Source: Candidatus Latescibacterota bacterium (GTDB taxonomy: Bacteria; Latescibacterota; UBA2968; GCA-2709665). From it: DNA of 26,667 bases. Numbering within the stretch: the stretch's first letter is position 1; each line of letters begins with the position of its first letter. The translations under genes and the position numbers were made by a program. The notes under the pieces are model-generated. The model did not search any database. It worked only from the letters and a program-made list of their open reading frames with translations, and was not told the origin of the DNA. Shown in pieces: positions 1-24,117 of this stretch. The DNA is taken from assembly GCA_963662665.2 (NCBI GenBank), contig CAXXJS010000058.1, forward strand, positions 1-26,667. Reading direction: 5' to 3'.

Positions 1-1201
1 CCCATGGCCTCCCGGGTCTCCCTGTCCCTCATCAGGCGAGAAAGCCCCGCTGCCAGCGCCGCCGGTGATTCCGGATCGACCAGGATTCCTCCGCCGGTAC
101 GTTCGACAAGCTCCGGAAACGCGCCGTGCCGCGGCTGGACCACTGGCGTCCCGCTGGCCAGCGCCTCCAGTACGAACAGGCCCTTCGGCTCCACGGGTAC
201 GGCGTAGGCACCGACAGGACGTGCACACTTCTAAGGAATTCAATCTTCTGTTTCCGGTCCACCTCGCCGCGGTATTCGAACACATCTGAGAGACCGCGGG
301 ATTCGATCAGTGAGGTAACCTGCCGGAAATAGGTCTTCTCGCGCCCTCCCAGATATCCCGCCACCCGCAATCTCAGGTTTTCCCTGCCGACCTCGTCCGC
401 CAGCCGCCCCACGGCATCCGCCAGCAGGTGCAAGCCCTTCTCCGGTGCGATACGGGCCAGATACCCGATGGTAAACGGCTTCTCCGGCACCGTCCGGTCG
501 CCAGGTCCGTGGCCCTCCAGGCTCACGCCCAGACGAACCACGCGCACACGGTCCCGAGGCGCCTGAAGATACGCGGCCATGGAATCCGCGTACCAATCGC
601 ACGTCGCCACAAACGCGTCGACGTCACGGGCCCGATCCCGCATCAATTTCACCGCCTCGTTTCGATACGGTTCGTTCAAGCCATCAAGAAAAACGTCCTC
701 TCCCTGTACGGAACACAATACCGGTACGCCCATTTCGCGTTTCATCTCGCGCGCCATGCCCAGAAACATGGAATTCGTCAGATGAACCAGATCCGGCCGG
801 AGTTCGTCTTTCAACCAACGAACCAGCTTCGTCAGTTCTTTTCTCTGAGAACCCAGGTCTCCTTTCAGCATCGAAACGGTGAGCGCCCCCAGGTCCTCCG
901 CGCTTGTCGATCCACTGAACCACGAAAGGGAATTCAACAGCACGCGACCGTTCATCAGGCGGTCTACAAATTCCGGCGCGCGCCGAAACAGAGCCAGTTT
1001 CTGCTGCAAATAGACATTGATTCCACCGTAAAACACACGGTCGATGCTTGCATCGGGTCCGTCGGTCCGCAGCGGCGTATACGTTGGAACCAGTGCAACG
1101 TCGACTCCCTTCAGCCGGAGAGCCGAGGCCAGCGTATTGTCGTTAATGCAACTCCCGCAATACATCCCCGCGGCGCCGGCGGCTATGTAGGCAATACGCA
1201 T
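1..1201 (-). CDS. Glycosyltransferase family 4 (GT-B fold); 3'-partial, apparent frameshift near 190-197
   Basis: ORF 32..1201 has GT4 motifs (IGYLARIAPEKG, VLSVPTPY). After a frame change at about 190-197 the reverse strand continues EPKGLFVLEALASGTPVVQPRHGAFPELVERTGGGILVDP, the E-x7-E motif, and stays open to base 1. Confidence 0.9.
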
Positions 1202-1360
1202 CGGACGATCCGCCTTGATTTCGTACGCAGAATTCCAAGCCCGGGCGCCCGTTTACATCAACGCCTTGACCGTCCAGCTCTTGGACGACTGCAACGCGGA
1301 GGGGACGCCGCAAGCAGTGCCTGACAGTTCCACCGCCATTTGCCGAGGCGACGCCCCGGC

Positions 1361-2644
1361 TCACACAGCCGTACTCGAATAATGGGCAACGTCATCGGGC
1401 AGATTGCACATTTGCCCCATTGGACCGAAGATCGGCGTGACGTCGTTGACGTAGATCTTCCCGCTCAGAATATCCACGATACCGTTCAGACACTCGGGAT
1501 GCGCTTCCAGGAACCGGCTGAAGCTGAAGTCCTTCGTATAGAAGGCGTACACGAGCTTTCGAATGGCTTCCATGCCCGGAATGAACTCGTCCCCCCAACT
1601 GCCCAGTTGTCTGGCGGAAAAATCGCGCTTTTCAATGGCTTCATGGATCGCATCGGCCGCCATCTCTCCCGACTTGAGCGCCAGGAACACGCCGGACGAA
1701 TACACGGGATCGAGAAATCCGTATGCATCGCCAACCAGCACCCAGCCCTCTCCGGCGACCGAACGTGCCCGATAGGAGAAGTCACTCGTTGCCTTCATGG
1801 GAAACAACTGCCGGGCGCACGTGAGCCGCTCCTGCATCGGGCGGCATTTCTCCAGCTCTTCCTCGAAGATCTCCTGTGGCGTTCCCTCGCGCTTCTGAAG
1901 CAAATAGCCCACGTCCCCAACCACGCCGACGCTGACGACGTCGTCGGCCAGCGGGATATACCAGAACCACGCGTCCTTCGTTCGGGTATGCAGAATCAAC
2001 GTCGCGCCCTCGTCGATTCCGGCATCTCTGGATCCGCCCTTGAAATGCGTAAACAGAGACGCTTTTTTCAAGCTGGGCTCCTCTGTTTTTATCTTGAGTT
2101 TGCGGGAAATCAACGCGCTGCGGCCCGTTGCATCCACCACCACCCGTGCCGAAAGTTCATGCAGGCTGCCGTCGATACGCCTTGCCCTGACGCCGGCTGC
2201 CCGTTCGCCGTCGAAAAGGACCTCCTGAACGGCGGTTCCCTGCTCCACCCGCGCCCCTTTCTCGCGGGCGTTCTCCAGCATCATCCGGTCGAATTCGCTT
2301 CTCAGCACCTGCCACGTGACCGAACTCTCGTGCGGGTCGTGCCGATGGAAATAGAAGGGCGCGGAACCACGGCCCGAACCACCGAAGAACTGAACGCTGT
2401 ACTTCTTGACGAACGCGCTTTTCCTGAGCTTATCAAGAACGCCAAGCCGTTTGAACGACCAGTAGGTTCCCGGCATCAGCGACTCGCCGATCTGAAACCG
2501 GGGGAACTGCGCCCGCTCGAGTAACAGAACGCGATGGCCATGTTCGGCAACAAGCGCCGCTGTTGTGCTTCCCGCCGGCCCCCCGCCGATTACAATGACG
2601 TCGTATGGGTCTGTAACCATATCCGGCTTCCCGCGCAAACTCAT
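1361..2644 (-). CDS. Flavin-dependent halogenase-like FAD oxidoreductase (PltA/CndH/CmlS-type)
   Basis: GGGPAG FAD-binding motif, IGES, FVKKYS (candidate catalytic Lys), WFWYIP (WxWxIP), GDA and FLDPVYSSGV. ATGA overlap with the upstream gene at 2641-2644; alternative start ATG 2620. Confidence 0.8.
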   Translation of the reverse strand: MSLRGKPDMVTDPYDVIVIGGGPAGSTTAALVAEHGHRVLLLERAQFPRFQIGESLMPGTYWSFKRLGVLDKLRKSAFVKKYSVQFFGGSGRGSAPFYFHRHDPHESSVTWQVLRSEFDRMMLENAREKGARVEQGTAVQEVLFDGERAAGVRARRIDGSLHELSARVVVDATGRSALISRKLKIKTEEPSLKKASLFTHFKGGSRDAGIDEGATLILHTRTKDAWFWYIPLADDVVSVGVVGDVGYLLQKREGTPQEIFEEELEKCRPMQERLTCARQLFPMKATSDFSYRARSVAGEGWVLVGDAYGFLDPVYSSGVFLALKSGEMAADAIHEAIEKRDFSARQLGSWGDEFIPGMEAIRKLVYAFYTKDFSFSRFLEAHPECLNGIVDILSGKIYVNDVTPIFGPMGQMCNLPDDVAHYSSTAV

Positions 2645-3918
2645 TTCCGATGGTCCGTGAACCGGTTCGCCTTCATTTCGAACCTCGGCAACGTGTCCCT
2701 GTCCACCGCCCGAGCCCGCACGCGGAACCCCAGCGCGCGCCTCGCCTCCTTCGCCACGGCGTTAACAACGGCATCCGTTGAATCCCCACTGATCTCCAGG
2801 CGAATCTCCATTTCGTCCAGTGAGCGGCGGCGGTAGACGTCAACCGCGAACTCCGTCACTTCGGGACAGGACCTTACGACGTTTTCAACGGCGCTGGGGT
2901 AGATAACCATCCCCTGAACGATCATGCCCCCGTCGATGCGTCCGATCACGCCGTTTTCAATACGGAGGAACCCGGACCCGCAGGGGCATGCGCTCCCGGC
3001 GCGCTTCACTCTGTCGCCGGTGCGATAACGGATTGCCGGCATCCCCGCCCGCCCCAGGTTCGTCAGTACCAGTTCTCCCTCATCGGCCTGCTCGCAGGTA
3101 TCCGGGTCGATCACCTCACAGATGAACTCGGCCTCGTTCACGTGCATGCCGTTTCGAGCGTGGCATTCATATCCCCACGCCCCGACCTCGGTGGCGCCGG
3201 CGTGGTCGAAACACCTCGCGCCCCAGGCCTCCTCAATCCGCCGCCGCGTCGACGGCAGACCCGCGCCGGGTTCGCCCGCATGGATTGTGGTGCGAATGCT
3301 GGAATTCGCAATGTCGATCCCTTCGGACTGTGCCACCTCGGCCAGGTGCAGCGCGTAGGTCGGCGTGCAGACAAGCACCGTCGCCCGGTGTTCTTCAATG
3401 GCATGAAGCCGTTGGATGGATGACATCGAACCGCCCGTAACAGCCATCGCCCCGATCTGCCGGGCGCCTTCATGGGCCGTCCAGAACCCGATAAACGGTC
3501 CGAAAGAGAAGGCGAAGAACAGGCGGTCCTCCCGCGTCACACCGGCGCCGCCATACACCTCGCGCCAGCAACCGGCGAACCAGTCCCAACTTTCCGGCGT
3601 GTCCAACCAGCGCAGGGGCATGCCCGTTGTACCCGACGTCTGATGTACACGGACGTAATCCGCCAGGGAAAACGTCAGGTTGGTCCCGTACGGCGGGCAC
3701 CCGTCCTGGTCGGCCGAGAATTCGTCCTTGGTCGTAACGGGCAGCAGGCGATAATCCTCCAGGGTCCGAATATCTCCCGGATCCGATAGGCCTGCGCTCG
3801 CGAGTTTTCGCCCGTAAAAGGCATTGTTCCGTATGACCGGAACAAGCATTTTCCGAAAGCGCGCCAACTGGGATTCGACCAGCACGCGCCGGTCCCGCAG
3901 CGGGTAATCGGAACTCAT
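2641..3918 (-). CDS. Phenylacetate-CoA ligase (PaaK)-like ANL adenylating enzyme
   Basis: QTSGTTG P-loop, HAGEP, DHAGATEVG, RYRTGD and C-terminal LPRFEMKANR lysine; 425 aa; ATGA overlaps at both ends. Confidence 0.88.
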   Translation of the reverse strand: MSSDYPLRDRRVLVESQLARFRKMLVPVIRNNAFYGRKLASAGLSDPGDIRTLEDYRLLPVTTKDEFSADQDGCPPYGTNLTFSLADYVRVHQTSGTTGMPLRWLDTPESWDWFAGCWREVYGGAGVTREDRLFFAFSFGPFIGFWTAHEGARQIGAMAVTGGSMSSIQRLHAIEEHRATVLVCTPTYALHLAEVAQSEGIDIANSSIRTTIHAGEPGAGLPSTRRRIEEAWGARCFDHAGATEVGAWGYECHARNGMHVNEAEFICEVIDPDTCEQADEGELVLTNLGRAGMPAIRYRTGDRVKRAGSACPCGSGFLRIENGVIGRIDGGMIVQGMVIYPSAVENVVRSCPEVTEFAVDVYRRRSLDEMEIRLEISGDSTDAVVNAVAKEARRALGFRVRARAVDRDTLPRFEMKANRFTDHRK

Positions 3919-6050
3919 AGATCGACCTGGACGGCACTATGGATTCCGAAGGGTGGCGCCGGGATCACCGACGTCGCACCAAAACCGCGTGTTTCATACG
4001 TGCGGTCCGTCAGATTCCGGGCATTGATCCGAATGGTCGCCTGCCTGTATCTGTACGACATCGAAGCGTCCAGCGTCAGCACGCCGCCGATACTGTACTG
4101 ATTGTCCTCGGCGATGAACTGGCTGGCCACGTACCGGGCGCCCAACCCCAGTTCGATACCATTTTCAAAGCCCAGCGCGCTCCAGATATTAAAAATGTGG
4201 CGAGGCGAGAAGGCCGGTCTGTTCCCTGACCGGTCCAGGTGACGGAACTGCACCCCCGTGGCCGTCGGAACGGCCACCATTTCCGTGAAGCGCGTCAGTT
4301 CCGCGTTGGAATACGCGTAGGTCAGGAATACGTGGCAACCGCCACCGGGACGCGCCATCATTTCCAGTTCCAGACCCCGTGAGCGCTGGTCGCCGTCCTG
4401 TTTCGTCACGCCGGTTTCGTCCGGAATGCCAATGTCGTACTTCCGCAGATCGAAGACAGCCAGCGACGCGTGAAGGCGGTTGTCTACAAGGTATTTCTTC
4501 GCGCCCGCCTCGAACTGCGTGGATGATTCGGCGTCCCTCGGTCCCGCGACGAGACTGGACGGCGGCGCAAATGCCTTGCCCGCGCTGGCGTAAAGGGTCA
4601 CATCTTCCGCGGGACTCATCGCCACACCCGCCATGGGACTCAATTCGTGAAACCCTCTTGACGTAGACGTGACCGGGTCGTCGTACCGTATGCGATCGAA
4701 GCGCGCGCCAACGTACGCCTGGAACAATTCCGAAAACACAATCCGGTCCACGACAAAGGGCGCAATGACACCGCTGGTCGCGTCCGCCCCGCGGGACTGG
4801 CCCGGCACGACGTAAAAGGGCGGCGCGGCCGTCTCGACCGGTTCATACAGATCCAGGTTCGGCAGGACCGCCACGTCGAGCGTAAACCTGTCCTGCCACC
4901 GCATCAGTTCCAGACCCGCCAGCAGCGTATGCCTCGCCGGGCCCGTTGCGAAGGAAAATACGAGTTCAAACTGATTGCCCAGCACTTTCTGCCGGTCGTC
5001 AAGCAGCAATAACGTTCTGAACAGATCCAGACTCCCTTCAGCGTTTGGATACACGCCGCTGAACAGGGTGCCGTTGGAGATCCAGGAGAAATCCGTATAA
5101 TACAACTTATTCCGCAACGTGACACCCGGTGACAGTCGAGTCCGCAAATCCACACGGACTCGGAATATCTCCTGATCGGAGACATCGAACGGAGACTGGT
5201 AGGAACGGGTTCGCGGTACGCCGGCCAACTCGCCTCCCACCAGCGGCAGCCCCGAATCCGACTTGTATTCGCTGGTCACGTATTCGAAATTCGCCGTTGC
5301 CGTTGTCTTTTCGTTTCGCAGTGTCACGGCAGGGTTCAGTGCCCATATACCGCTGTTCTTGTCGTCTCGATAGTTGTCCGAAGCCTGACGCAAACCATTG
5401 AATCGCAACGCCACGCCCCGTGCCGGGTCCGCCCAGCCCGCATCCACGCTCCCACGCAGGTTCCGGTACGGCCCGTAGGCGCCTTTCGCCTGGAACATGG
5501 TCTTGAAAACGGGTTGCTTCCGGCTCAGATTGACCGATCCGGACAACGGATTGCCGCCATACAGAAACGCGCCTGGTCCTTTCAGCACCTCGACCCGATC
5601 GAGATTGTAAAGATTGTAAAACGTGGCCTCGGGTTCTGCGGCGCCGTCGGTCAGCACGAGCCCGCTGGACAACGAGTCGAATCCGCGTATAACGAAAAAG
5701 TCCGTCACGCCGAACACCGTCTGGACGTTCACCCCGCTCACGTTTCGAAGCGCATCGCCCAGAACCACGCCGCTCTGGTGGTCGATCAGGCCGCGATTGA
5801 CCACGCTGACACTGGCGGGCGTTTCCCGCAGAGGAACCGGAACCTTGCTGGCTACAGAACTGATCGTGGCAACCTTTTCCTTGCTCTCCGTCACCACGAT
5901 CTCTTCACCTGCGTACACGGGCAGGTCATCCTCGGCTTCCTCGTCGGTCTTGTCGTCCGCGGCAAGCAAGGCGTTTGCAGAAAGACACAGAATCATGCCG
6001 GTCAGCAGGCCCGTTCGGAAAAACAACGACATGCGATTTCCTTTCACCAA
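3915..6050 (-). CDS. TonB-dependent outer-membrane receptor (siderophore-receptor-like)
   Basis: Signal peptide, EEIVVT TonB-box-like segment, plug motifs ETPASVSVV / IRGF / RVEVLKGPGAFLYG and C-terminal NLTDRTY barrel motif. Start may be TTG 6050, GTG 6047 (GGAGG RBS) or ATG 6032. Confidence 0.93.
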   Translation of the reverse strand: MVKGNRMSLFFRTGLLTGMILCLSANALLAADDKTDEEAEDDLPVYAGEEIVVTESKEKVATISSVASKVPVPLRETPASVSVVNRGLIDHQSGVVLGDALRNVSGVNVQTVFGVTDFFVIRGFDSLSSGLVLTDGAAEPEATFYNLYNLDRVEVLKGPGAFLYGGNPLSGSVNLSRKQPVFKTMFQAKGAYGPYRNLRGSVDAGWADPARGVALRFNGLRQASDNYRDDKNSGIWALNPAVTLRNEKTTATANFEYVTSEYKSDSGLPLVGGELAGVPRTRSYQSPFDVSDQEIFRVRVDLRTRLSPGVTLRNKLYYTDFSWISNGTLFSGVYPNAEGSLDLFRTLLLLDDRQKVLGNQFELVFSFATGPARHTLLAGLELMRWQDRFTLDVAVLPNLDLYEPVETAAPPFYVVPGQSRGADATSGVIAPFVVDRIVFSELFQAYVGARFDRIRYDDPVTSTSRGFHELSPMAGVAMSPAEDVTLYASAGKAFAPPSSLVAGPRDAESSTQFEAGAKKYLVDNRLHASLAVFDLRKYDIGIPDETGVTKQDGDQRSRGLELEMMARPGGGCHVFLTYAYSNAELTRFTEMVAVPTATGVQFRHLDRSGNRPAFSPRHIFNIWSALGFENGIELGLGARYVASQFIAEDNQYSIGGVLTLDASMSYRYRQATIRINARNLTDRTYETRGFGATSVIPAPPFGIHSAVQVDL

Positions 6051-6056
6051 TACCTC

Positions 6057-7274
6057 CTAACCGCCCGGCCTGAGATCCAGGCAGACTATTTTCCGCATAT
6101 CCCGGACGAACACGCGGCCGTTGGCCAGGGTCGGCCCGGTCCAGCTGCGGCCTGCAAGCACCTGCACGCCGGCCGTTTCGCTGAATCCTTCTGGCGTTGC
6201 CTTTGCCAGGGCCAGCCTGCCGTTGTCACTCAACAGCAGGAGATGGCCGTCGGCGTAGATCAACGCCCCCTTGCCATACCCGCGGTGTTTCCATTGCTCT
6301 TTCCCCGTCCGTGCTTCGATGCACTTCAGGATGGCATTATCGAATCCATACAGATGGTCCCCCACCAACACGGACGTGCCGAAATGATTCTTCATCCGCC
6401 TGCTCTCCCAGACCCGGGTCACCCCGATTCCGTTGCTTCCAGCTTCGATTCGCAACAGGGCTGCGCCATGGTCGTAGCCGGAGGATATGAAGATCTGGTT
6501 CGGCGGCACGAAGATCGGGGTTGCAATGTTCAAATCGTACGACGTCTTCCACGGGTACCGCCAGTAAAGGGATCCGTCCTCGGGCGAGAGTCCGACCACG
6601 GCTTCCCCCGAGAAATAGATGACCTGACGCACGCCTGCAAGATCCACCACGATGGGCGATGAATACGAAGCCACGTCATTCTGGGAAGCCCAGGCGACTT
6701 CACCGTTCTTACTCCGCAACGCCAGAAACGTACCGTCGCGGGTTGCCGCCTCCAGGAACAGGAGGTCGCCTTCCACCAGTGGCGAAGTCGAAAACCCGAA
6801 CCTGGGAAACCGGCCGCCAAGTCCGTCGACAAGGTCCACGGACCAGATCGTTTCGCCGTTCGCCGCGTTCAGTGCGTACAGGCGTCCCTCAGCGCTGAGG
6901 ACGTAGACCCGATCCCCGTCTACCGTCGGCTGCGAACGGGGTCCGTTGCCCCCCTGCCCTTCCTTGAACATGCGCCCTGTCCTGAACCGCCAGATCTCAT
7001 CGCCGGATTCCTCATTCAGACAGATGACGAACTCATCGTCACCCTCCGCAAACATGGTGAATACGCGACCATTGGCCACCGAAATCCCCGAAAACCCCGC
7101 ACCGAGGTTTTTCTGCCACACAACGTCAGGACCGTTCTTCGGCCAGGTCTTCAGGTATCCCGTTTCGGTCGATAAACCCGTTCGGTCAGGACCCAACCAT
7201 TGGGGCCAATCCGCACGAACGGATTGCGCGTTAAATAACACTATCGCAATAAGAATCACCGACATTCCTTGCAT
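6057..7274 (-). CDS. Secreted PQQ-like (BamB-like) beta-propeller repeat protein, DWPQWxGP type
   Basis: Signal peptide ending VRA followed by DWPQWLGP; repeated blades such as ALNAANGETIW, SGDEIW, TGKEQW. Start set at ATG 7274; the ORF track starts at GTG 7301. Confidence 0.88.
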   Translation of the reverse strand: MQGMSVILIAIVLFNAQSVRADWPQWLGPDRTGLSTETGYLKTWPKNGPDVVWQKNLGAGFSGISVANGRVFTMFAEGDDEFVICLNEESGDEIWRFRTGRMFKEGQGGNGPRSQPTVDGDRVYVLSAEGRLYALNAANGETIWSVDLVDGLGGRFPRFGFSTSPLVEGDLLFLEAATRDGTFLALRSKNGEVAWASQNDVASYSSPIVVDLAGVRQVIYFSGEAVVGLSPEDGSLYWRYPWKTSYDLNIATPIFVPPNQIFISSGYDHGAALLRIEAGSNGIGVTRVWESRRMKNHFGTSVLVGDHLYGFDNAILKCIEARTGKEQWKHRGYGKGALIYADGHLLLLSDNGRLALAKATPEGFSETAGVQVLAGRSWTGPTLANGRVFVRDMRKIVCLDLRPGG

Positions 7275-7382
7275 CTTGCGTTCTTCCTTTCTGACCCTCA
7301 CGAACTCACTATTGACGCGAATGGCCGTGTGGCGGACGATGGGACACGCAACTCGTCAAAGTTCCCGCGTCTGTCGAACCGC

Positions 7383-7454
7383 GGTCATTGAGCTTGTCGA
7401 AACGAGGACATCAGACCTCTCCCCCCGGCCCCCTCTCCTGAAGGAAAGGGGGAG
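7383..7454. repeat. Two adjacent REP-like palindromic remnants
   Basis: GGTCATTGAGCTTGTCGAAAC (7383-7403) and CCTCTCCCCCCGGCCCCCTCTCCTGAAGGAAAGGGGGAG (7416-7454; stem CCCCCTCTCCT/AGGAAAGGGGG with one mismatch). Both resemble intergenic repeat types I recall from other bacteria, but each occurs only once in this window. Confidence 0.45.
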
Positions 7455-7580
7455 ACAAGCGTTGATCCGTCACCCTGTGCCGCTTGGATATTTTCATCTA
7501 TTGCAATGTCATCACCGACGACAGTTCCCTCGTTTCACGCAAAAAGCGGCACAGGGGCCGGGTCTCTTACTGCTCGGATT

Positions 7581-8927
7581 TCAGGTGTACCTGGAATCCC
7601 GATAGACCTCGTGATAGAAGGCAGGCAACAACTGGTCAACACGCAACAGCCCCTCGCGAGTCAGCCTGACCTCCCGCGCGTCGAAATCCAACATACCGAA
7701 ATCTCGCAGCTTCCGGTATGCATCGCCGAACTGCTCCAGGACGTCTACGTCGAATTTATCTCTGAAATAGCCGGTTTCTATCCGTCCAAGCTTGAGCTGC
7801 AGGATCATCTCCCGCACCAGGCGCTCCTCGTCCGTAGGAACGAAGGACCTGTTCAGCGGCAGCCGCCCCTGCATACAGGCGTCGACGTAAGGGTCCCACT
7901 GCGTGTGATTCTGAAAGTGTATCCCGCCCACGTGCGAAAACGACGCAACGCCCGCGCCGATCAGGTCCGCACTCCGCCAGAGCGCGTCCCGGTAGACAAA
8001 GCGTTTCGGTTTACCCTTCTTCACCATCGTATAGGCACTCGAGATCTCGTAGCCGGCCTCGCCGAACTCGTCGATCGCGTGGGCATGCCACGCGCGCTTC
8101 GTCTCCCAGTCGGCAACCGCAAAACCGTTTCCATCCAGCAACGCCCTGGAATAGGTCGTGTTGAACGGCAGTTCCATCTGATAGATCGTGACACTGTCGG
8201 GGTCCAGGTCAATCGTACCCTGCACCGTCTCCTTCCAGGTTTTCCAGGTTTCGCCCACCATCCCGGAAATCAGGTCCACGTTCACCTGTTCGAACGCCTG
8301 CGCCTTCACCCATCCCATGGCCTGGTAAATCTCCTTGCCGACGTGCGCCCGGCCGTTCTCCTTCAGGATCCCGTCATTCAGGTTCTCCAGCCCAAGGCTC
8401 AGGCGCGTCACGCCGATCTCGCGAATGGCCTCCACCTTAGGCTGTGAAAGCGTGCCCGGTTCGCACTCGAACGCGACCTCTTCGGCGGCATCCCACGGCA
8501 AGACGGCCTTCAGCCGATCCACCAGCGCCGTCAGGTGTTTCACACTGATATACGACGGCGTCCCCCCGCCAAAATAGACGAATTGCAGGCTGCGTCCGGC
8601 AATCCTGGGCAGCCCGGCGTAGTGTTCCACCTCTCTGGCCAGCGCATCCAGATAGACCTGGATTTCGGAACTGTTCCGATCCGTATACACCCGAAAATAG
8701 CAGAACTTGCACCGCTTCCTGCAGAACGGGATATGCAGGTACAGTCCCAACGGCGTTCCCCTCGCAGACGGGTCCTTCGTGTGCAGCATATCCACGACCT
8801 GGGGGTTTTGCTCATCCCGCCAGAACGAATACGGCGGATAGTTGGACACAAACACGCTGCCCACCTGCGTTTCCTTCCAATCCTTCCTGGACGTCGCGGG
8901 TTCCGGAACGTGAACTTGCGTACTCAT
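7581..8927 (-). CDS. HemN-like (class C) radical SAM protein; probably not true HemN or HemW
   Basis: YLHIPFCRKRCKFC (CxxxCxxC), YFGGGTPS, RLSLG, NVDLISG and a HemN_C-like tail (LTREGLL); ATGA overlap with the upstream gene at 8924-8927. Confidence 0.9.
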   Translation of the reverse strand: MSTQVHVPEPATSRKDWKETQVGSVFVSNYPPYSFWRDEQNPQVVDMLHTKDPSARGTPLGLYLHIPFCRKRCKFCYFRVYTDRNSSEIQVYLDALAREVEHYAGLPRIAGRSLQFVYFGGGTPSYISVKHLTALVDRLKAVLPWDAAEEVAFECEPGTLSQPKVEAIREIGVTRLSLGLENLNDGILKENGRAHVGKEIYQAMGWVKAQAFEQVNVDLISGMVGETWKTWKETVQGTIDLDPDSVTIYQMELPFNTTYSRALLDGNGFAVADWETKRAWHAHAIDEFGEAGYEISSAYTMVKKGKPKRFVYRDALWRSADLIGAGVASFSHVGGIHFQNHTQWDPYVDACMQGRLPLNRSFVPTDEERLVREMILQLKLGRIETGYFRDKFDVDVLEQFGDAYRKLRDFGMLDFDAREVRLTREGLLRVDQLLPAFYHEVYRDSRYT

Positions 8928-10081
8928 TTCCCTACCTCATTTCCAAAACAGTACAGAGTTCCGTCTGTCGTACCGATAACAAGCCTTCCGCCGGCCACAC
9001 CGGGCGAGGCCAGTATTTCCGATCCGGTCACGAATTCCCAGCGTGTTTCTCCCGAATCCAGATCCAGCGCAACAACCCTTCCGCCGGTCGTACCTGCAAC
9101 AACGCGGTCGCCCGCCACAACCGGAGAGGCGTCGACTCGAGACCGGAACTGCCGGGTCCACAATACCGCGCCAGTTTCCGGGTTCAGCGCCCGCACCATC
9201 CGGTCCCGCCCCGCGACGATTACGTGATTCTCGGTTACCGCTGGAGAGGCGTAGAATGGAAACTTGCGATCCGTGTGCTCGTATTGCCACGCGATTTTTC
9301 CGGCTGCGAGATCCACACCCAGAAACCGGTTTCCGAACGTGCCGACGTAGGCGCGTCCGTTTCGCACCGCAGCGCTGCCCGCCACGTAGTCATGCATTTC
9401 AATATGTGAAATCTCTGCGCCGTTGGAGACGTTCACCGCCCGCATGAATCCGTCGCATCCTGCAAAGAGGACGCTGTCGCCCGCGAGCGCCGGGGCTCCG
9501 TGAACGTATCCATCTGTCTGCAACTTCCACGCCAGAGACCCGTCTTTCGTTTCGAGGCAGTAAAGGAAATTGTCGTAGGAACCGAAAAGTACCCGTCCCC
9601 CTTTTTCGTTGGCCGAGGATACAATTTCACCCCCTGTGCGAAACGTCCACAGCCCCTTGCCGGTTCCCGCGTCCACGGCGTGAAACCAGCCGCCGTCATC
9701 GCCGAATAAGACCCTTCCTTCCGCCACCAGCGGCGAAGACCTGACTTCGCCGCCGGCCGAATACGTCCATTTCAGGCTCCCACCGGCCAGTTCAAAGGCG
9801 TATAGCTTGCCGTCCAGACCTCCGACGTACACCGTCTCCCGCCAGATTGCCGCCGTGGATTCGATTCCCGCCGGTATGCGTGCGGTCCACACAACCCCCA
9901 GGCTATCGGGCAGCGGCCCCTGTGCAATTCCGGTGGATTGCGCGTCGCCGCGAAACCGCGTCCAGGCCGCCTCATTTGCAACGCAGGCGGAGACCATTAC
10001 GTGCAATAAGCAGCAGAAAAGAAAAACGTCCTCTATGCCTCTCGCCCGTCGCCTGACCCGAAACTCAATACGTCTCTTCAT
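8924..10081 (-). CDS. PQQ-like (BamB/AfsK-like) beta-propeller repeat protein, possible lipoprotein
   Basis: About 8 regular repeats of the type SSP-x-V...G-x-DG-x-LYA-x-D-xx-TG-xxx-W. Likely start ATG 10081 overlaps the ADH 3' end. A basic N-region and hydrophobic stretch lead to VSAC, a lipobox-like motif. Confidence 0.85.
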   Translation of the reverse strand: MKRRIEFRVRRRARGIEDVFLFCCLLHVMVSACVANEAAWTRFRGDAQSTGIAQGPLPDSLGVVWTARIPAGIESTAAIWRETVYVGGLDGKLYAFELAGGSLKWTYSAGGEVRSSPLVAEGRVLFGDDGGWFHAVDAGTGKGLWTFRTGGEIVSSANEKGGRVLFGSYDNFLYCLETKDGSLAWKLQTDGYVHGAPALAGDSVLFAGCDGFMRAVNVSNGAEISHIEMHDYVAGSAAVRNGRAYVGTFGNRFLGVDLAAGKIAWQYEHTDRKFPFYASPAVTENHVIVAGRDRMVRALNPETGAVLWTRQFRSRVDASPVVAGDRVVAGTTGGRVVALDLDSGETRWEFVTGSEILASPGVAGGRLVIGTTDGTLYCFGNEVGK

Positions 10082-11180
10082 AGAACGCCAGATAGTCGGC
10101 CGCACGGACCGGCCGCGGATTGAAGGTCCCCGTCCACTGCCTCGCCGCATCCGCCGCCATTTCCGGTAGCCGGTCCCGCTCGACACCCAACTCGCTGAGG
10201 CGCCCGGGCAAACCCGCCGTGCCCTTGAATCGGACGATCTGATCGGCGAGCGCCGCGGCAGTCAGACCCAACCCTTCGTAGAGCGCGCCTTCCGTTTCTC
10301 CATTGAAACGGATCACCGATGGAAGCATCACCCCCACCGCGACGCCGTGTGCGATGCCGTATCGAGCCGTCAGCGGGTTGGCGCACGCGTGGGCGGCGCC
10401 CAGCATGGCATTCTCGATGGCCGCGCCTGCGAAATGCGCGCCAAGAAGCATGGCGGCCCTTGCTTCCACGTCCGCCATGGACGCCAGCGCCGCCTTGAAT
10501 CCCGATGCGAGCAATCGCCAGGCTTCCATCGCGTACATGCGCGACACGGCATTCCGCCGCGTACTTACGTAACTCTCCACCGCATGCGCGATGGCATCGA
10601 TTCCGGCCGAGGCGGCCACATCTACCGGAACGCTCGCGGTTACCTCGGGATCCAGGATGACGCCGCGAAATCGCGCCTTCAGGTCTCCGCAAGCCATCTT
10701 CTCGTGCGTATCCACACTGGCGATCAGCGCGTAAGACTGCGCCTCGCTGCCTGTCCCCGCGGTCGTTGGAACGCCGATCGAGGGCAACATCGGGCGCGCC
10801 GCCCTTCCCATTCCCCTATAGTCTTCGATCCGGCCGCCGTTCGTCAGAATGAAATTGATCCCCTTGGCAGTGTCCATCGCACTGCCGCCCCCCAGGCCCA
10901 CAATAAGATCGATCCCGCCCCGCGCCGCCGCAACCTCGACGCCCGCGTCCACGTGTGCCGTTGTGGGGTTTTCGCCCGCCCCGTCGAACAGGAAGACGTC
11001 GCGGGCCCCGCGCCGCAGCAGCCCCAACGCATTGTCGGCGATGCCCGCGCCGACAATCCCGGGATCCGTAACGAGCAGAGTTCGCCTTCCACCCAGTCCA
11101 TCCGCCATGTCCCCGAGTTGCGCCAGTGTGCCTTCCCCGAAAATCACTCGCGGCGCAGGATGAAGGTCGAAGGGTTCCAT
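10065..11180 (-). CDS. Iron-containing (type III) alcohol dehydrogenase
   Basis: GENPT, GGGSAMD, PTTAGTGSE, DAIAHAVES, GAAHACA and HGVAV: the NAD-binding motif and the Asp/His/His/His metal ligands are all present. Confidence 0.93.
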   Translation of the reverse strand: MEPFDLHPAPRVIFGEGTLAQLGDMADGLGGRRTLLVTDPGIVGAGIADNALGLLRRGARDVFLFDGAGENPTTAHVDAGVEVAAARGGIDLIVGLGGGSAMDTAKGINFILTNGGRIEDYRGMGRAARPMLPSIGVPTTAGTGSEAQSYALIASVDTHEKMACGDLKARFRGVILDPEVTASVPVDVAASAGIDAIAHAVESYVSTRRNAVSRMYAMEAWRLLASGFKAALASMADVEARAAMLLGAHFAGAAIENAMLGAAHACANPLTARYGIAHGVAVGVMLPSVIRFNGETEGALYEGLGLTAAALADQIVRFKGTAGLPGRLSELGVERDRLPEMAADAARQWTGTFNPRPVRAADYLAFYEETY

Positions 11181-11190
11181 ACTAAGGATT

Positions 11191-12615
11191 CTACGCTCCC
11201 CGGGCGAACTGAAAGGCCCGCTGCCGGTAGAGGTGTTCGAACAAATTGCCTTCGTGAGGCTGGTCCCAGGAAATCCGGTTCGTGGGAATCGGCCCGACGT
11301 TCAGTCGTTCCACGTGGGGTGAACCCAACAACCGTGCGATGAGGGATTCATCTTCCGTCAACGCGGTCACCACCAGGCTTGGCCCGATCCGATTGACCAT
11401 TTCCGTCTGCGGAACTTCGACCACGCCGGCGTACGGGAACAGGAACTCGGTATTCGCCAGCGGGTGATCGGGAGACTCACACCACACCAGTGTGGGATTC
11501 ATAAAGGTGAGACCGTCTATCTCGTGGATCCGTTCCCTGCCCGATACCGCGGTCAGGTCCGTTGCGCCGCCGGATCCCAAATGCACGTCGATGGTATTTG
11601 AAACCTGTTTTGCCGACGCCGGGTTGGCAAACGCGGCAAGTTGCGCTTCCGGGTCGTCCAGCGGGCGGGCAACGATACTGGAAAGCCGGCACGCGAGCGC
11701 CTCGGCAATCTCCCGTCCGAACGCGGGCGTCCACACGCCCGAAGCGTTGATGCAGGACCGCCCGCCGTTCGCCGCTATCGAAACGAGGATCACATCCAGA
11801 AATTCTTCCCAGCGCTCGACCAGGTCTTCCCCGAGAATTACCTTGCTTCTTCCCGGGCCGTGAATCGATACCCGTGGATCGTTGCGCCACGGCGCCACAG
11901 TTGCCCCTCCGCCGAACAACAGGGAGCGGCCGCACCGCAAGAGAATCTCATTGGCGCCGGCGTGGGCGGCGGGATAGATGCCGAACGCTTCGGCGGGGCA
12001 TCCCGCGGCAATAAACGCCTGGGCGATCCGATACGGGGTCCAGGGATCCTCGCGTCCCGGCTTCAATACGAGGGGCACCTTCAATGAAATCGCCGGAACC
12101 CAGAGAGAATGCACACCGGGAGAATTGCTGGGTAACACGGCGCCCAGCGCATCGGTCTGACAAAGATAGCTCAACGGCCGGGTGTTTTCAAAATTCCACC
12201 CGCCATCCAGTACCGACAGATCCAGGTCGCGTGTCAGCCCGCAGAGCACGTCTTCGATCTCGCTGCAGACCAACCGGATTTTTTCCATGTTCGACCGGCA
12301 CAGAGCCTGGGGAATTCCCGTTGTCCCCGATACCTGGCGGACATAGTCCTCGGGAGATTGCGGTTCGTTTTCCAGCGGAAGGACCGCATCGGCGAAAAGC
12401 CCGGCAGCCTTCCGGGTCACGGCAACCAGTTCGGAAACGCTCAAAGCGTCCAGGGTGCGCCGGTTCTCAGGAACCGCGCTGAGGTCCCTCGCGATCAGTC
12501 CGGGGTTCGCCTGGCTCACGCGGACCGTGGGTTCTCCGGTCTGCACGTGTGGAACTTCCTGGACGTCAAGGCTCGTATAGGGCTTTCCTGCCCGCAAAAC
12601 GGGGATATGGGTCAC
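11191..12615 (-). CDS. Aldehyde-dehydrogenase-fold protein, EhpG/GriD-like acyl reductase
   Basis: LPSNSP (oxyanion Asn), LKP, NGGRSC (catalytic Cys) and EFLFP. HGPGRSK sits where the ELGGK motif normally is. GTG start at 12615 has a GGAGG RBS; the ORF track starts at 12639. Confidence 0.85.
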   Translation of the reverse strand: MTHIPVLRAGKPYTSLDVQEVPHVQTGEPTVRVSQANPGLIARDLSAVPENRRTLDALSVSELVAVTRKAAGLFADAVLPLENEPQSPEDYVRQVSGTTGIPQALCRSNMEKIRLVCSEIEDVLCGLTRDLDLSVLDGGWNFENTRPLSYLCQTDALGAVLPSNSPGVHSLWVPAISLKVPLVLKPGREDPWTPYRIAQAFIAAGCPAEAFGIYPAAHAGANEILLRCGRSLLFGGGATVAPWRNDPRVSIHGPGRSKVILGEDLVERWEEFLDVILVSIAANGGRSCINASGVWTPAFGREIAEALACRLSSIVARPLDDPEAQLAAFANPASAKQVSNTIDVHLGSGGATDLTAVSGRERIHEIDGLTFMNPTLVWCESPDHPLANTEFLFPYAGVVEVPQTEMVNRIGPSLVVTALTEDESLIARLLGSPHVERLNVGPIPTNRISWDQPHEGNLFEHLYRQRAFQFARGA

Positions 12616-12648
12616 GCGATCCTCCCGGATCGTTATCAAGCCATCACG

Positions 12649-13722
12649 CTAATACACGCCCACGACGACTGACTCCTGCATCTCGGAGAACAGACCCAGG
12701 TTCCTCACACCGTCCCACGGAAACATCTCTATAGGTTCCGCCCGCTCTGCCTGGTCCCTTTCGAGGAACCTCGGCATGAAGAACTCTTTGGTCAGCGTTG
12801 TCAACATCACCCGGCCAACGGCATTGTATTCCACGTTTTCGTCGGGATTTTCCGGGTCCACCAGCTCGATAACCGCCCTGGGCACCGGCGGGTAATAGGT
12901 AATGGCGTAATTGTCCCCGGGCGCCAGCGGCTTGGAATAAGCCAGCCCCATCAACGTATTTCCATACGTCGGCACAAAATCAATTCCGGGAATCAACTCT
13001 TCCCTGGCGAACCGGTTGAACTGCGCGTCCATCTCGGTCCCGCCGCAAAATATCCCCGAAATTCCGACCTTTTTCAACGAAATCTTTTCGCAGATCGCTT
13101 CCAGAAGCTTTGGGGTTGTAAACATGCACTTCACGTTGTCGTTCGCCCGCAATATGGTCAGCGCCTGGTCGATTACGTGTGCCTTGTACAGGTTCAGTTC
13201 CTGCAGCGCTCCGCGCCCGATCAGTTTGTTCACCCACCGGGGGTCCAGGTCCACCAGGAAACAGATCCCGCCGCGGATCTGGCACAGATATTCAACCGCC
13301 AGCCGCAGCCGCCTGGGGCCCGTGGGACCCAGCATGAGCCAGTCCGCCCCCCCGGGGAACGTCTCGTTTGAAAGGTGCCTGCTGAACGTCTCGTAGTCGA
13401 TCTGGAAGTCGTCCTGGCTGATCCGGTATTTGGGTACCCCGGTGGATCCGCCCGTTTCGAAGACGTAGGTCGGTTTGCCCGCGCTGCCACGGGGAATCCA
13501 ACGGCGCACGGGGCCGCCGCGCAGCCATTCGTCCTGAAAATGGCCGAGGATTTTCAAGTCCTCATAGCCCCCGATCTCCCGCCGCGGATCGAAATCCAGC
13601 CCGCCGGCGAATTCCAGCCAGAACGGGCAGCCCGTGTCCGGATTGAAATGCCATGCAACGGTTTCCCGTACATGGGCATCCAGTTCGGCCCTCGCCGCTA
13701 TGACGCTTTCGGCAATCGACAT
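12649..13722 (-). CDS. EhpF/GriC-like atypical ANL adenylating enzyme
   Basis: 357 aa with WHF-x3-TGCPFWL, ETGGSTGVPKY, PTGP, DLDPRWV, TTP, GGTE, YG, ERD and terminal GVY. These are collinear with my recollection of Pantoea agglomerans EhpF. It lies immediately upstream of the ALDH-like gene, as in ehpF-ehpG and griC-griD. Confidence 0.8.
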   Translation of the reverse strand: MSIAESVIAARAELDAHVRETVAWHFNPDTGCPFWLEFAGGLDFDPRREIGGYEDLKILGHFQDEWLRGGPVRRWIPRGSAGKPTYVFETGGSTGVPKYRISQDDFQIDYETFSRHLSNETFPGGADWLMLGPTGPRRLRLAVEYLCQIRGGICFLVDLDPRWVNKLIGRGALQELNLYKAHVIDQALTILRANDNVKCMFTTPKLLEAICEKISLKKVGISGIFCGGTEMDAQFNRFAREELIPGIDFVPTYGNTLMGLAYSKPLAPGDNYAITYYPPVPRAVIELVDPENPDENVEYNAVGRVMLTTLTKEFFMPRFLERDQAERAEPIEMFPWDGVRNLGLFSEMQESVVVGVY

Positions 13723-13724
13723 GT

Positions 13725-14843
13725 CTATTTCCGATCTGAATCCGACGTTTCATCCCGCCATGCATCCAGCGGATGCCTGCGGTCCGAGAGCGGCAGCGCC
13801 ACGCGGCGCCCTCCCTCCCTGTGTGACTGGTAGATGCCGATAATCATCTCGAACGCCGTCCGGGCGTCGGCCCCGCTTGACGGCGGCTCCGTCCCTTCCT
13901 CGATCGCCGCGGCCATGCGGCCATACATCCTGGCAATGGCATCCCGGGCTTCCGATCCTACCGTCTCAACGGGCTTCCAGTCCCCCTGGCCTCCCGGCAG
14001 GCCTTCCATTGGCCTGGGCAGACACCAGAGCGCTTGTCCTACGCTGCCGGAAGCACGGATCGACAATTGCCCATCGGTTCCGATGACGTCCACGCCGTAG
14101 TTTGCGCTATTGGGCGACGCGAATTCCAGGAAATGGATCTCCCCCAGAACGCCCCTTTCGAATCCGTAATGAGCCACCGCGCGATCGCCCATCACCAGCC
14201 CCGAATCCCTGTCCTTCGGCGACATCTCCTTCGCTTCCATGATGTCGTTGGCGTCCGCCAGGCGTCCCTGAAAGTAAACGCTGCCGGCGCACCAGACGGG
14301 CCGGCCGCCGAAGCGCATCATCATATCGGCTACGTGGGTGCCCATCTCCGTAAACTCGTTTCCGCTCCGGCGCCCGGACTTGTTCCGGCCGCGCACCAGC
14401 ACGACCTCCCCAATGTCCCCATTGGAGACCATATCCCGCGCCTTCAGGACCGCCGAACTCACGTGGCTCTGCTGGTTGACGGCCAGCCGCGCGCCCGACG
14501 CCGCGGCCGCCGCGACCATCTCGTCCGCCTCGGCGGGGTCGATGGCGATCGGCTTCTCGCAGAGTACGGATAAACCGCGCTTCAGCGCCGCCACGGCGGG
14601 CGCGTGATGCCCCCTGGTCTGGGTGGCCACCACGACCAGATCGGGCCGCACCTCGTCGTACATCCTCTCGAAATCCAGGAACCGCGCCTGCACGCCGTGC
14701 GTGTCTCCCGTCTCCCTGAGGGTCTCGGCAAAGACGTCGCAGATCCCCGCAACCTCGAAACCGGGCAGCCCTCCGATGACACTCAGATGCTGGCGCCCCA
14801 TCCCCCCGCAACCGACCAGAACGACACGAACCGGCTTCCCCAC
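13725..14843 (-). CDS. Gfo/Idh/MocA family NAD(P)-dependent oxidoreductase
   Basis: VGCGGMG Rossmann motif, CEKP, GTHVAD. Likely GTG start at 14843 after an AAAGGA RBS; the ORF-track start at 14927 overlaps the upstream gene. Confidence 0.9.
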   Translation of the reverse strand: MGKPVRVVLVGCGGMGRQHLSVIGGLPGFEVAGICDVFAETLRETGDTHGVQARFLDFERMYDEVRPDLVVVATQTRGHHAPAVAALKRGLSVLCEKPIAIDPAEADEMVAAAAASGARLAVNQQSHVSSAVLKARDMVSNGDIGEVVLVRGRNKSGRRSGNEFTEMGTHVADMMMRFGGRPVWCAGSVYFQGRLADANDIMEAKEMSPKDRDSGLVMGDRAVAHYGFERGVLGEIHFLEFASPNSANYGVDVIGTDGQLSIRASGSVGQALWCLPRPMEGLPGGQGDWKPVETVGSEARDAIARMYGRMAAAIEEGTEPPSSGADARTAFEMIIGIYQSHREGGRRVALPLSDRRHPLDAWRDETSDSDRK

Positions 14844-14866
14844 GGCAGTTCCTTTCTCCAACAGGT

Positions 14867-15955: not shown

Positions 15956-15982
15956 CTTTCCGACCTCCATAAATGGTTAACG

Positions 15983-18520: not shown

Positions 18521-18633
18521 GTCTGAATCCCTTTCCGGGGATTTTTTCGAATTCTACGCTGAATTTACAATGACGAGGAGACCATCGATCGGGCATGGAA
18601 TAAAATTCCGGTCCCGGATCGAGTCGATCGTAT

Positions 18634-19917: not shown

Positions 19918-19978
19918 AAAGAACTCCGATTTCGGCGACTCCGGGCCATTGGCCGGCGCCTTGATTGACAGCCCGCGA

Positions 19979-20007
19979 AATCTACGGCCTGCACATCCCT
20001 TTGTCAA
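19979..20007 (-). promoter_or_regulatory. sigma70-like promoter for larA and downstream genes
   Basis: The minus strand reads TTGACA-N17-TAGATT, about 60 nt upstream of the larA ATG. Confidence 0.65.
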
Positions 20008-20140
20008 GCTCGGCATGTTGTCCCGAGACCATGCATGCGGGTTCCAGTCCGAACCACGCGATACGACGACTTGCGTTCCGATTCCTGCACGCGAAAGCGG
20101 GTGTGCGACCTGCTGTCGGCTGTCGAGCCCGGCGATTGCA

Positions 20141-20169
20141 TTGACATGGTTGTGGCAGGAAGCTATATT
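20141..20169 (+). promoter_or_regulatory. sigma70-like promoter for the methyltransferase-GT2-GT-C operon
   Basis: TTGACA (20141-20146)-N17-TATATT (20164-20169). Confidence 0.7.
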
Positions 20170-20336
20170 CCACTCGAATCCGGATTCCACGCACCAAGTC
20201 CTACTCGACCTCGCATTTTCGAACCCGAGACTTCGGCCAGTCCCTAAACCTCCGGCAGGTTGCAATGGGGATTCTGACAGTCAAGATCTGCCGCCGGTAC
20301 CGCCGAACTGAGCCGCCGAGAGGGAAGCTGCCAAAA

Positions 20337-21104: not shown

Positions 21105-21110
21105 GGTTGC

Positions 21111-21848: not shown

Positions 21849-21892
21849 CCTAGCTGAACTAGACGCAGCCTGCTACACTTAAGGGGCCAATA

Positions 21893-24102: not shown

Positions 24103-24117
24103 ACGCGGCGCCGTGCA

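Follow-up and report, generated by a model that had tools for sequence, protein, structure and literature searches.

A modular operon of Latescibacterota with an EhpF/EhpG-type acid reductase pair, a HemN-like radical SAM enzyme and exported propellers, possibly making a halogenated aromatic alcohol derivative

The window analyzed here, 26,667 nucleotides in length, is the entire contig CAXXJS010000058.1 (C58) of a metagenome-assembled genome (MAG; 4.86 Mb, 92% complete) of a Candidatus Latescibacterota bacterium. It carries a cluster of ten co-oriented genes on the minus strand (positions 3–13722), and our data support the conclusion that this cluster is one conserved functional unit and not a chance neighbourhood, because its synteny extends across phyla and its genes co-occur nearly perfectly. 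We regard it as a modular, vertically kept biosynthetic operon of known kinds of enzymes. With a probability of roughly 0.45 the cluster makes a halogenated aromatic alcohol derivative which is exported and possibly recaptured; the product would most likely be a halogenated aromatic alcohol, ester or glycoside. In the scheme laid out below we infer the substrate class, the order of the steps, the role of the radical S-adenosylmethionine (SAM) enzyme and the direction of transport.

A collinear cluster kept across phyla

The ten genes were confirmed as open reading frames (ORFs) on the minus strand at the places given in a first-pass annotation made from the letters alone. In the direction of transcription they encode an EhpF/GriC-like adenylate-forming enzyme, an EhpG/GriD/LuxC-like reductase, an iron-containing alcohol dehydrogenase (Fe-ADH), a first exported propeller (Prop1), a HemN-like radical SAM enzyme (rSAM), a second propeller (Prop2), a TonB-dependent receptor (TBDR), a PaaK-like ligase, a flavin-dependent halogenase and a GT4 glycosyltransferase, and Pfam, NCBIfam or PDB matches support all ten of these class names. 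The ATGA stop/start overlaps proposed at 2641, 3915 and 8924 are all present, and the remaining junctions are indeed short, being an overlap or spacers of 6, 9 and 10 nt, apart from the two long gaps already seen of 159 nt (1202–1360) and 279 nt (7302–7580, or 7275–7580 if Prop2 begins at its ATG). The closest public relatives of the window are Latescibacterota MAGs; its rSAM protein is 88% identical to the copy in locus L003.

For the comparison across phyla we used the best 80 of at least 560 confirmed rSAM relatives found in contigs of one genome per species. By record title these loci belong to Latescibacterota (13), Poribacteria (30), Acidobacteriota (14), Planctomycetota (17), KSB1 (1) and other or unclassified bacteria (5). 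Many are cut by contig ends, and the gene counts, obtained by tblastn with the window proteins, are lower bounds: Prop1 was found in 69 loci, the Fe-ADH in 60, the halogenase in 44, the PaaK-like ligase in 39, the reductase in 35, Prop2 in 28, the TBDR in 21, the EhpF-like enzyme in 20 and the GT4 in 15. All homologues lie on the strand of the rSAM gene. Three or more of the ten genes are found in 70 loci; of these, 69 keep the gene order of the window and only L074 departs from it.

Gene content differs by phylum. The PaaK-like gene is absent from all 14 Acidobacteriota loci, none of the 30 Poribacteria loci has a TBDR or GT4 gene (19 of them end with a TAXI-TRAP binding protein instead), and the halogenase occurs in only 2 of the 17 Planctomycetota loci; the TBDR is present in 12/13 Latescibacterota and 8/14 Acidobacteriota loci, and loci of these two phyla add SSF and DUF3311 symporter genes. 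Planctomycetota loci mostly hold the core only, together with a gene for a GcvH-like protein (12/17) and one for a 4Fe-4S protein (10/17). The multi-phylum core is thus the EhpF-like/aldehyde dehydrogenase (ALDH)-like reductase pair, the Fe-ADH, a propeller and the rSAM enzyme, with the PaaK-like ligase, halogenase, TBDR and GT4 as lineage modules. The ten genes had first been read as one fixed linear pathway; this has to be given up for a modular arrangement in which PaaK, TBDR, GT4 and halogenase are missing by phylum.

Co-occurrence was followed in 168 genomes of the window's phylum; these genomes are related and not independent, and the intersections were read by eye from tables. Matches were found in 97 genomes for rSAM (E ≤ 1e-100), 97 for the EhpF-like enzyme (E ≤ 1e-80) and 96 for the halogenase (E ≤ 1e-100), each single-copy where present. 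All three occur together in 95 genomes and none of them in 69; the four discordant genomes (G067, G094, G100 and G147) are 81–86% complete. The orthologues are therefore not scattered without correlation of their profiles, an outcome which had been named beforehand as speaking against a common system. Presence follows lineage, with 14/14, 21/21 and 30/31 genomes in three genera, 0/8 in another genus and 0/36 in ten families. Moreover, genes were co-retained though they lie hundreds of kilobases to megabases apart, namely rSAM and the EhpF-like gene in G101, G130, G141 and G142, and rSAM and the halogenase gene in G084, G087 and G091. Long frames of 833–1017 aa among the profile matches were considered as gene fusions and rejected, being read-through of neighbouring genes in the four genomes examined.

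These results bear directly on the explanation that the genes share no function and were packed together by chance or operon compaction. The co-oriented run does extend past 13722 into four further minus-strand genes (13725–20265), the nearest only 2 nt away, which encode two Gfo/Idh/MocA oxidoreductases, a PcRGLX-like/GH127-like protein of 845 aa and a LarA-like protein of the lactate racemase family whose N-terminus is extended by about 140 aa. These sugar-metabolism genes, unrelated to the cluster, continue its strand with equally tight junctions, a point in favour of this explanation; they stand beside the cluster only within the same genus. Against this explanation, 69 of 70 loci are collinear across at least five phyla and three genes are together in 95 and jointly absent from 69 of 168 genomes, the unlinked cases included, so that we find it hardly credible. 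The block at 13725–20265 itself resembles a sugar or polysaccharide utilisation block.

Several related loci hold further genes. In L004 and L005 two paralogous proteins of the DUF3857/transglutaminase-like/DUF3858 type (657 and 629 aa; L005 positions 2316–6194) are encoded between the EhpF-like and reductase genes. In most Planctomycetota loci (L070–L082; for example L072 6263–6727 and L082 11746–12858) rSAM is directly followed by genes for a GcvH-like protein, whose lipoyl-lysine motif is intact, and for a 4Fe-4S dicluster protein of 370 aa; the two were considered as a possible carrier and reductant. Further downstream, a few loci of this phylum hold genes for a squalene-hopene cyclase and a DUF116–polyprenyl synthase fusion. 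Seven Poribacteria loci (L021, L024, L025, L027, L036, L037 and L040) have, upstream of the Fe-ADH gene, genes for two CBS-domain proteins, a two-subunit 2-oxoacid:ferredoxin oxidoreductase and an M55 D-aminopeptidase, and this block precedes a set of Fe-ADH, Prop1, rSAM, PaaK, halogenase and TAXI genes.

Acid reduction, radical SAM enzyme and exported propellers

The first cluster gene (12649–13722, minus strand) encodes a 357-aa atypical adenylate-forming enzyme whose residues 16–344 align with residues 22–352 of the EhpF chain in a PDB search (3l2k/3hgu, E 5.7e-42). It has no C-terminal subdomain of the ANL type, and its sole Pfam match is a weak, partial AMP-binding hit at residues 195–292. 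Mean column identity among 15 orthologues is 72%. In a set of 5.8 billion proteins it has at least 8000 relatives (clusters at 90% identity); every one of the 8000 candidates scored reaches E ≤ 1e-20, with identities of 72% or more among the best 120. Public names for these relatives and for those of rSAM are "hypothetical", "phenylacetate-CoA ligase" and "coproporphyrinogen-III oxidase family protein".

After a junction of 9 nt follows the gene for a 482-aa reductase of the ALDH superfamily (11191–12639, minus strand; Pfam Aldedh E 3.2e-10), whose best PDB matches are aldehyde dehydrogenases (E 5e-9). Its Cys296, within the motif NGGRSCINAS, is invariant in 21/21 orthologues. The two genes are adjacent or near each other in the loci that hold both. 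Neither protein matched the Pfam families of LuxE and LuxC, presumably PF04443 and PF05893, at E ≤ 0.001, and the two-protein carboxylate reductase EhpF/EhpG (GriC/GriD) is therefore the better comparison.

All three modelling runs of a complex of the two proteins gave an ipSAE of 0.75, compared with 0.00 for the highest-scoring of three controls; contacts agreed to at least 89% between runs and the pLDDT of the partners was at least 89. In calibration 58 of 80 solved complexes attained this mark, compared with 2 of 110 mismatched pairs; these figures are only a rough guide here, as our own alignments were used. The modelled interface involves conserved positions, reductase residues 23–25 and 45–48 and adenylase residues 205–243, and the prediction supports the view that the EhpF-like protein and the reductase bind each other. 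In the proposed mechanism the truncated adenylase would form an acyl-adenylate and pass the acid to the conserved cysteine of its ALDH-like partner, from which the aldehyde would be released at the cost of ATP and NAD(P)H.

The Fe-ADH (371 aa; 10065–11180, minus strand) matches Pfam Fe-ADH and ADH_Fe_C and, in the PDB, methanol and propanediol dehydrogenases (E 8.5e-57); it scores below the cut-off of every NCBIfam equivalog. It would reduce the aldehyde to the alcohol. By analogy with the two characterised relatives of the EhpF-like enzyme, the substrate acid is probably aromatic. Of the chemistry proposed at first, the acid-to-aldehyde step has gained ground through the EhpF/EhpG-type pair and its modelled complex, whereas C-methylation, an aryl substrate and glycosylation of the alcohol remain conjectural.

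The rSAM enzyme (448 aa; 7581–8927, minus strand) consists of Radical_SAM and HemN_C domains. Its PDB matches are HemN (1olt, E 1.7e-33) and the class C methylase NocN (E 2.5e-23). Models for HemN, ChuW/HutW, STM4012 and HemW give 154–177 bits, all below their cut-offs; in particular the coproporphyrinogen III dehydrogenase model of HemN (TIGR00538) gives 176.8 bits versus 324.95 and that of ChuW/HutW (TIGR04107) 173.2 versus 400. As the score lies below the cut-off of every named subfamily, we assign the protein to an unnamed HemN-like subfamily. Across 71 orthologues the CxxxCxxC motif does not vary and conservation is 97% or higher at 138 of 448 positions; identities across phyla are 54–88%. 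The family is very large, with at least 8000 clusters at 90% identity. With a Gemmataceae orthologue as query, 7959 of the 8000 candidates scored have E ≤ 1e-100; the cultured Gemmataceae Limnoglobus roseus and Fimbriiglobus ruber carry orthologues 74–78% identical to this query. A Protein Atlas search returned only clusters named "coproporphyrinogen-III oxidase family" and HemW. The most likely role would be a class-C-type methylation or another radical modification and not coproporphyrinogen oxidation.

Both propellers are exported BamB/PQQ_2-like beta-propellers with N-termini resembling Sec-type signal peptides, as in their orthologues. Prop1 (8924–10081, minus strand; PF13570, 203 bits against a cut-off of 133) likely starts at the ATG at 10081 and not at the GTG at 10186, and its gene shares an ATGA overlap with that of rSAM. 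Prop2 (6057–7301, minus strand; PQQ_2, E 1.4e-48) probably starts at the ATG at 7274; its gene always adjoins that of the TBDR where a TBDR is present among the 80 related loci. PDB matches comprise designer propellers, kinase sensor propellers and BamB. The propellers had been called PQQ-type, after pyrroloquinoline quinone (PQQ). This name does not hold beyond the Pfam label: they are repeat proteins of a BamB-like, exported type, and nothing points to PQQ chemistry, Prop2 and Prop1 scoring 36 and 77 bits with the PQQ-dependent dehydrogenase model TIGR03075 (cut-off 480). The BamB model TIGR03300 likewise gives only 74 and 154 bits against 285. We read the propellers as periplasmic binding or processing proteins, and in the proposed pathway the Sec-exported propeller would bind or process the product in the periplasm. 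Tat export, which would imply loading of a cofactor in the cytoplasm, was considered and rejected, as no twin-arginine motif is found in the propellers or their orthologues.

The close tie between propeller and rSAM allows another explanation, namely that the cytoplasmic enzymes make a small cofactor or signal which the exported propellers use or sense, comparable to the supply of PQQ to periplasmic quinoproteins or to ligand-sensing kinase propellers. No gene accompanies rSAM more constantly than that of Prop1 (69/80 loci), which is also translationally coupled to it; other genomes have as many as four additional propellers beside the cluster, and the single-copy genes are very strongly conserved. 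However, the propellers lie far below the PQQ-dehydrogenase models (36–77 bits versus 480), resemble non-catalytic repeat propellers and are Sec and not Tat substrates; only 22 of 420 Prop1 positions are near-invariant, and optional halogenation would be odd for a cofactor. We judge this explanation quite improbable.

Lineage modules and the direction of the pathway

The PaaK-like aryl/acyl-CoA (AMP) ligase (425 aa; 2641–3918, minus strand) has an AMP-binding_C_2 domain and matches PDB 4r1l (E 4.3e-56). It is PaaK-like only, as the PaaK models TIGR02155 and NF041878 give 179.7 bits versus 646.3 and 226.9 versus 700; the FlxY model gives 164 bits. In the Latescibacterota module this ligase would activate a second (aryl)acid for formation of an ester or amide.

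Its gene is overlapped by 4 nt by that of the halogenase (427 aa; 1361–2644, minus strand), a short form resembling "variant B" enzymes with 97 bits to Trp_halogenase (PF04820, cut-off 21). PDB matches are 8zop (E 2.5e-65), 3e1t, PltA and CmlS, in a range of E 1e-48 to 1e-65. GxGxxG, WxWxIP and Lys81, which we take to be the catalytic signature residues, are invariant in 39/39 orthologues, and in HMMER alignments Lys81 falls on the lysine of 3e1t and PltA. On these motifs the protein is predicted to be a bona fide flavin-dependent halogenase, which would add Cl or Br.

The TBDR (3915–6050, minus strand) has Plug and barrel Pfam matches and belongs to the siderophore/metallophore subfamily, exceeding the cut-off of the siderophore-receptor model TIGR01783 (244.3 versus 223.5 bits). 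Its relatives in the PDB are CntO, FoxA, FhuA, the enantio-pyochelin receptor and Fiu. Together with the second propeller this metallophore-type receptor would handle or recapture the product at the outer membrane.

The GT4 gene (3–1201, minus strand) has Pfam GT4 domains, and the class proposed at first stands; an intact ORF of 389 aa does not, since the gene is frameshifted near 192–195 and cut by the contig end. In tblastn the homology to the 435-aa GT4 of L005 runs in one frame from 1201 to 197, in another from 191 to 3 and then off the contig start. Logan contigs of three sequencing runs from two studies (X3, X6 and X7) have one base fewer at each of positions 192 and 195 and no other insertion or deletion over 1–14000; two of the three extend 260 nt past the window start. 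Because three independent read sets are without the two extra bases, the frameshift is probably an assembly error in the window.

In same-genus genomes the GT4 gene is followed by genes for a small protein with 4–5 transmembrane (TM) segments and without Pfam family, a YbgC-type thioesterase, a LolD-like ABC ATPase and a MacB_PCD permease, giving the full order Gfo–EhpF…GT4–c30–TE–ABC–MacB. The window is without this module because the contig ends. A search with one query for the small membrane protein in the window's own genome, 92% complete, found none. The GT4 would glycosylate the product, and the membrane protein, thioesterase and LolD/MacB-type ABC transporter would export it. Halogenases, GT4 enzymes, ATP-consuming reduction and MacB/LolD-type ABC transporters are anabolic or export functions.

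The recurring importers make it necessary to weigh an opposite direction, in which an exogenous aromatic or other carboxylic acid is taken up and converted (salvage, detoxification or catabolism): the TBDR, the propellers and an SSF or TAXI system would import, the PaaK-like ligase and the reductase with the Fe-ADH would convert, and the rSAM enzyme would be degradative like ChuW. Importers recur by phylum (TBDR in 21, SSF in 13, DUF3311 in 9 and TAXI in 19 of the 80 loci), the ChuW/HutW model scores rSAM as high as the HemN model does (173 and 177 bits), lineage-level fixation fits a physiological trait, and Poribacteria loci carry upstream a 2-oxoacid:ferredoxin oxidoreductase, an enzyme known as a partner of PaaK-type ligases in arylacetate metabolism. 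Nevertheless we consider uptake and conversion unlikely. The catalytic signature of the halogenase is intact in all 39 orthologues, and we know of no catabolic role for such an enzyme; the reduction of an acid to an alcohol consumes ATP and NAD(P)H and yields no energy. In addition, the GT4 and the MacB/LolD-type transporter point outward, the ChuW score of 173 bits stays far below the 400 required for membership, and most Planctomycetota loci have no importer.

The genes behind GT4 could also be read as belonging to an envelope lipid, in which a fatty acid would become a fatty alcohol and, after methylation or halogenation and then glycosylation, would be flipped and extracted to the outer membrane by the Lol/MacB-like ABC transporter; such a product would resemble heterocyst glycolipids or bartolosides. 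The succession of acid, aldehyde and alcohol, then GT4, the protein with 4–5 TM segments, the YbgC-type thioesterase, the LolD-like ATPase and the MacB_PCD permease would suit this, and genus-level fixation fits an envelope component. Matches to BrtI, of bartoloside glycolipid export, are also found among the Halo_AMP clusters (see below) according to the available text of the preprint of Loureiro et al. (bioRxiv 10.64898/2026.08.03.742642). On the other hand, the pair is without a LuxE or LuxC Pfam match, whereas the aromatic-acid-activating EhpF matches at E 5.7e-42; relatives of the PaaK-like ligase and of the variant-B-like halogenase use aryl or pyrrolyl substrates, and none of the 30 Poribacteria loci has the GT4/ABC module, which most Planctomycetota loci lack as well. 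An envelope lipid is thus improbable in our view.

Synthesis of a halogenated aromatic alcohol derivative remains the reading we prefer, and several points weigh against it. The cluster has no flavin reductase, no gene for precursor supply and no acyltransferase for the product of the PaaK-like ligase. No carrier protein is encoded on the contig, though the closest solved halogenases act on carrier-tethered substrates, PltA and presumably also CndH and Bmp2 being examples. The aryl nature of the substrate is drawn solely from EhpF's two characterised relatives. The recurring transporters are mostly importers, namely the TBDR, SSF with DUF3311 and, in 19 of 30 Poribacteria loci, TAXI-TRAP. Halogenase, PaaK-like ligase and GT4 are missing from most Planctomycetota loci and so are dispensable for the core function. 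Finally, genus-level fixation and an rSAM identity of 54–88% across phyla are unusual for a secondary-metabolite cluster.

A different explanation would take the core alone (the EhpF/EhpG-type reductase, the Fe-ADH, rSAM and a propeller) as an ancient multi-phylum system for a periplasmic small molecule, either a metallophore-like compound that is exported and recaptured or a ligand or cofactor of a new class of BamB-like propellers, to which halogenation, acylation and glycosylation were added as lineage decorations. We give this idea a small but real chance; if true, the genes would stand for a physiological pathway that is both new and widespread, and not for a secondary-metabolite cluster. 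The EhpF-like and rSAM proteins belong to very large unnamed families, and outside Latescibacterota the genes are carried by Poribacteria, Acidobacteriota and Planctomycetota from sponges, soils and sediments. Identifying the product would explain what thousands of proteins mis-annotated as "coproporphyrinogen oxidase family" and "phenylacetate-CoA ligase" do, would show what exported BamB-like propellers are for and might link an abundant symbiont pathway to halogenated sponge compounds. The cultured Gemmataceae with an rSAM orthologue could make the question testable.

Within the larger gap, between rSAM and Prop2, lies a dispersed palindromic repeat of about 42 nt resembling repetitive extragenic palindromic (REP) elements (7412–7455, no strand assigned; 42 matches in the genome including its own copy). 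Independent Logan assemblies break at this repeat, with raised depth, and in relatives, L004 and L005 among them, hardly any gap separates the two genes. The 279-nt gap is an insertion and not a conserved regulatory region. An Rfam search of the window and five related loci gave no family at or above its gathering score, and scans for promoters and terminators gave no more sites than in shuffled sequence. A search of both long gaps for the precursor of a ribosomally synthesized and post-translationally modified peptide (RiPP) found only unconserved ORFs of 28–73 aa.

Two further groups of genes lie in the window. A divergent block on the plus strand (20265–24164) encodes a SAM methyltransferase, a GT2, a PMT_2/ArnT-like membrane glycosyltransferase and a TPR protein and is possibly an envelope glycosylation unit. 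On the minus strand (24437–25992) a 269-aa ORF with a heparinase II/III-like C-terminal domain overlaps, in another frame, a 259-aa ORF without Pfam family; the pair may be a single gene split by a frameshift, as in GT4.

Relation to known systems

The first-pass annotation had taken the cluster for a candidate undescribed system free of nonribosomal peptide synthetase (NRPS), polyketide synthase (PKS) or RiPP scaffolds. The absence of a scaffold was borne out: the contig has no such Pfam matches and no carrier protein, and the four PP-binding matches in the genome are all on other contigs. No curated NCBIfam equivalog cut-off is reached by the cluster proteins, and only the broad TIGR01783 subfamily model passes. 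Neither the NCBIfam comparison nor the full-text literature yielded a characterised pathway with this gene set, again as proposed. Literature searches on EhpF with halogenase and radical SAM returned nothing, and those on GriC/GriD and EhpF/EhpG, judged from the listings, returned papers on phenazine or 3-amino-4-hydroxybenzoic acid (3,4-AHBA) clusters and unrelated work.

The architecture itself is, however, already in print. In the available text of their preprint, Loureiro et al. (bioRxiv 10.64898/2026.08.03.742642) define from sponge metagenomes a "Halo_AMP" pseudoclass, an FADH2-dependent halogenase with an AMP-binding enzyme, comprising 840 uncharacterised clusters, and report no gene-cluster family with a MIBiG reference. 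Latescibacterota account for 9% of the families, Poribacteria for 8% and Acidobacteriota for 16%; PQQ-like domains, rSAM, TonB, glycosyltransferase, thioesterase and ABC genes are frequent in the clusters, and the A-domains are PaaK-like with matches to BagE/YtkN (10.64898/2026.08.03.742642). With a halogenase and a PaaK-like gene in one cluster the window falls under this definition as given there. The preprint needed a custom rule of halogenase plus AMP-binding enzyme (10.64898/2026.08.03.742642), in agreement with the expectation that rule-based finders seem to miss such clusters. It treats them as sponge-specific, host-specific secondary-metabolite clusters (10.64898/2026.08.03.742642); its available text does not describe the core of EhpF/EhpG reductase, Fe-ADH, propeller and rSAM, nor the lineage-level fixation and the spread beyond sponges into Planctomycetota and non-sponge Acidobacteriota.

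With the HemN family (HemN, HemW, ChuW/HutW and NocN/NosN) the window rSAM shares the radical SAM core, the CxxxCxxC motif and the HemN_C domain. With the variant-B halogenases PltA, CmlS and 3e1t, which we take to be CndH, the window halogenase shares GxGxxG, WxWxIP and the lysine, but it remains below the equivalog cut-off of CmlS (209 versus 900 bits). Aryl-polyene, flexirubin and xanthomonadin clusters resemble the cluster in having an aryl-acid ligase, a halogenase, a glycosyltransferase, a thioesterase and a Lol-like export module, whereas the window is without a ketosynthase, an acyl carrier protein or polyene machinery.

Among the closest known systems are EhpF/EhpG of Pantoea agglomerans, from the pathway of D-alanylgriseoluteic acid, and GriC/GriD of Streptomyces griseus, from that of grixazone, where a truncated ANL adenylase of about 360 aa likewise stands beside a cysteine-bearing ALDH-like reductase. 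The Pantoea phenazine pathway goes on to reduce the aldehyde and to esterify the resulting alcohol, the same logic of acid, aldehyde, alcohol and conjugate. The cluster of the window differs from both in having no genes for phenazine or 3,4-AHBA synthesis and in its partners, which are rSAM, propellers, a TBDR and a halogenase, and it is fixed in whole genera of uncultured phyla, unlike a strain-level antibiotic cluster.

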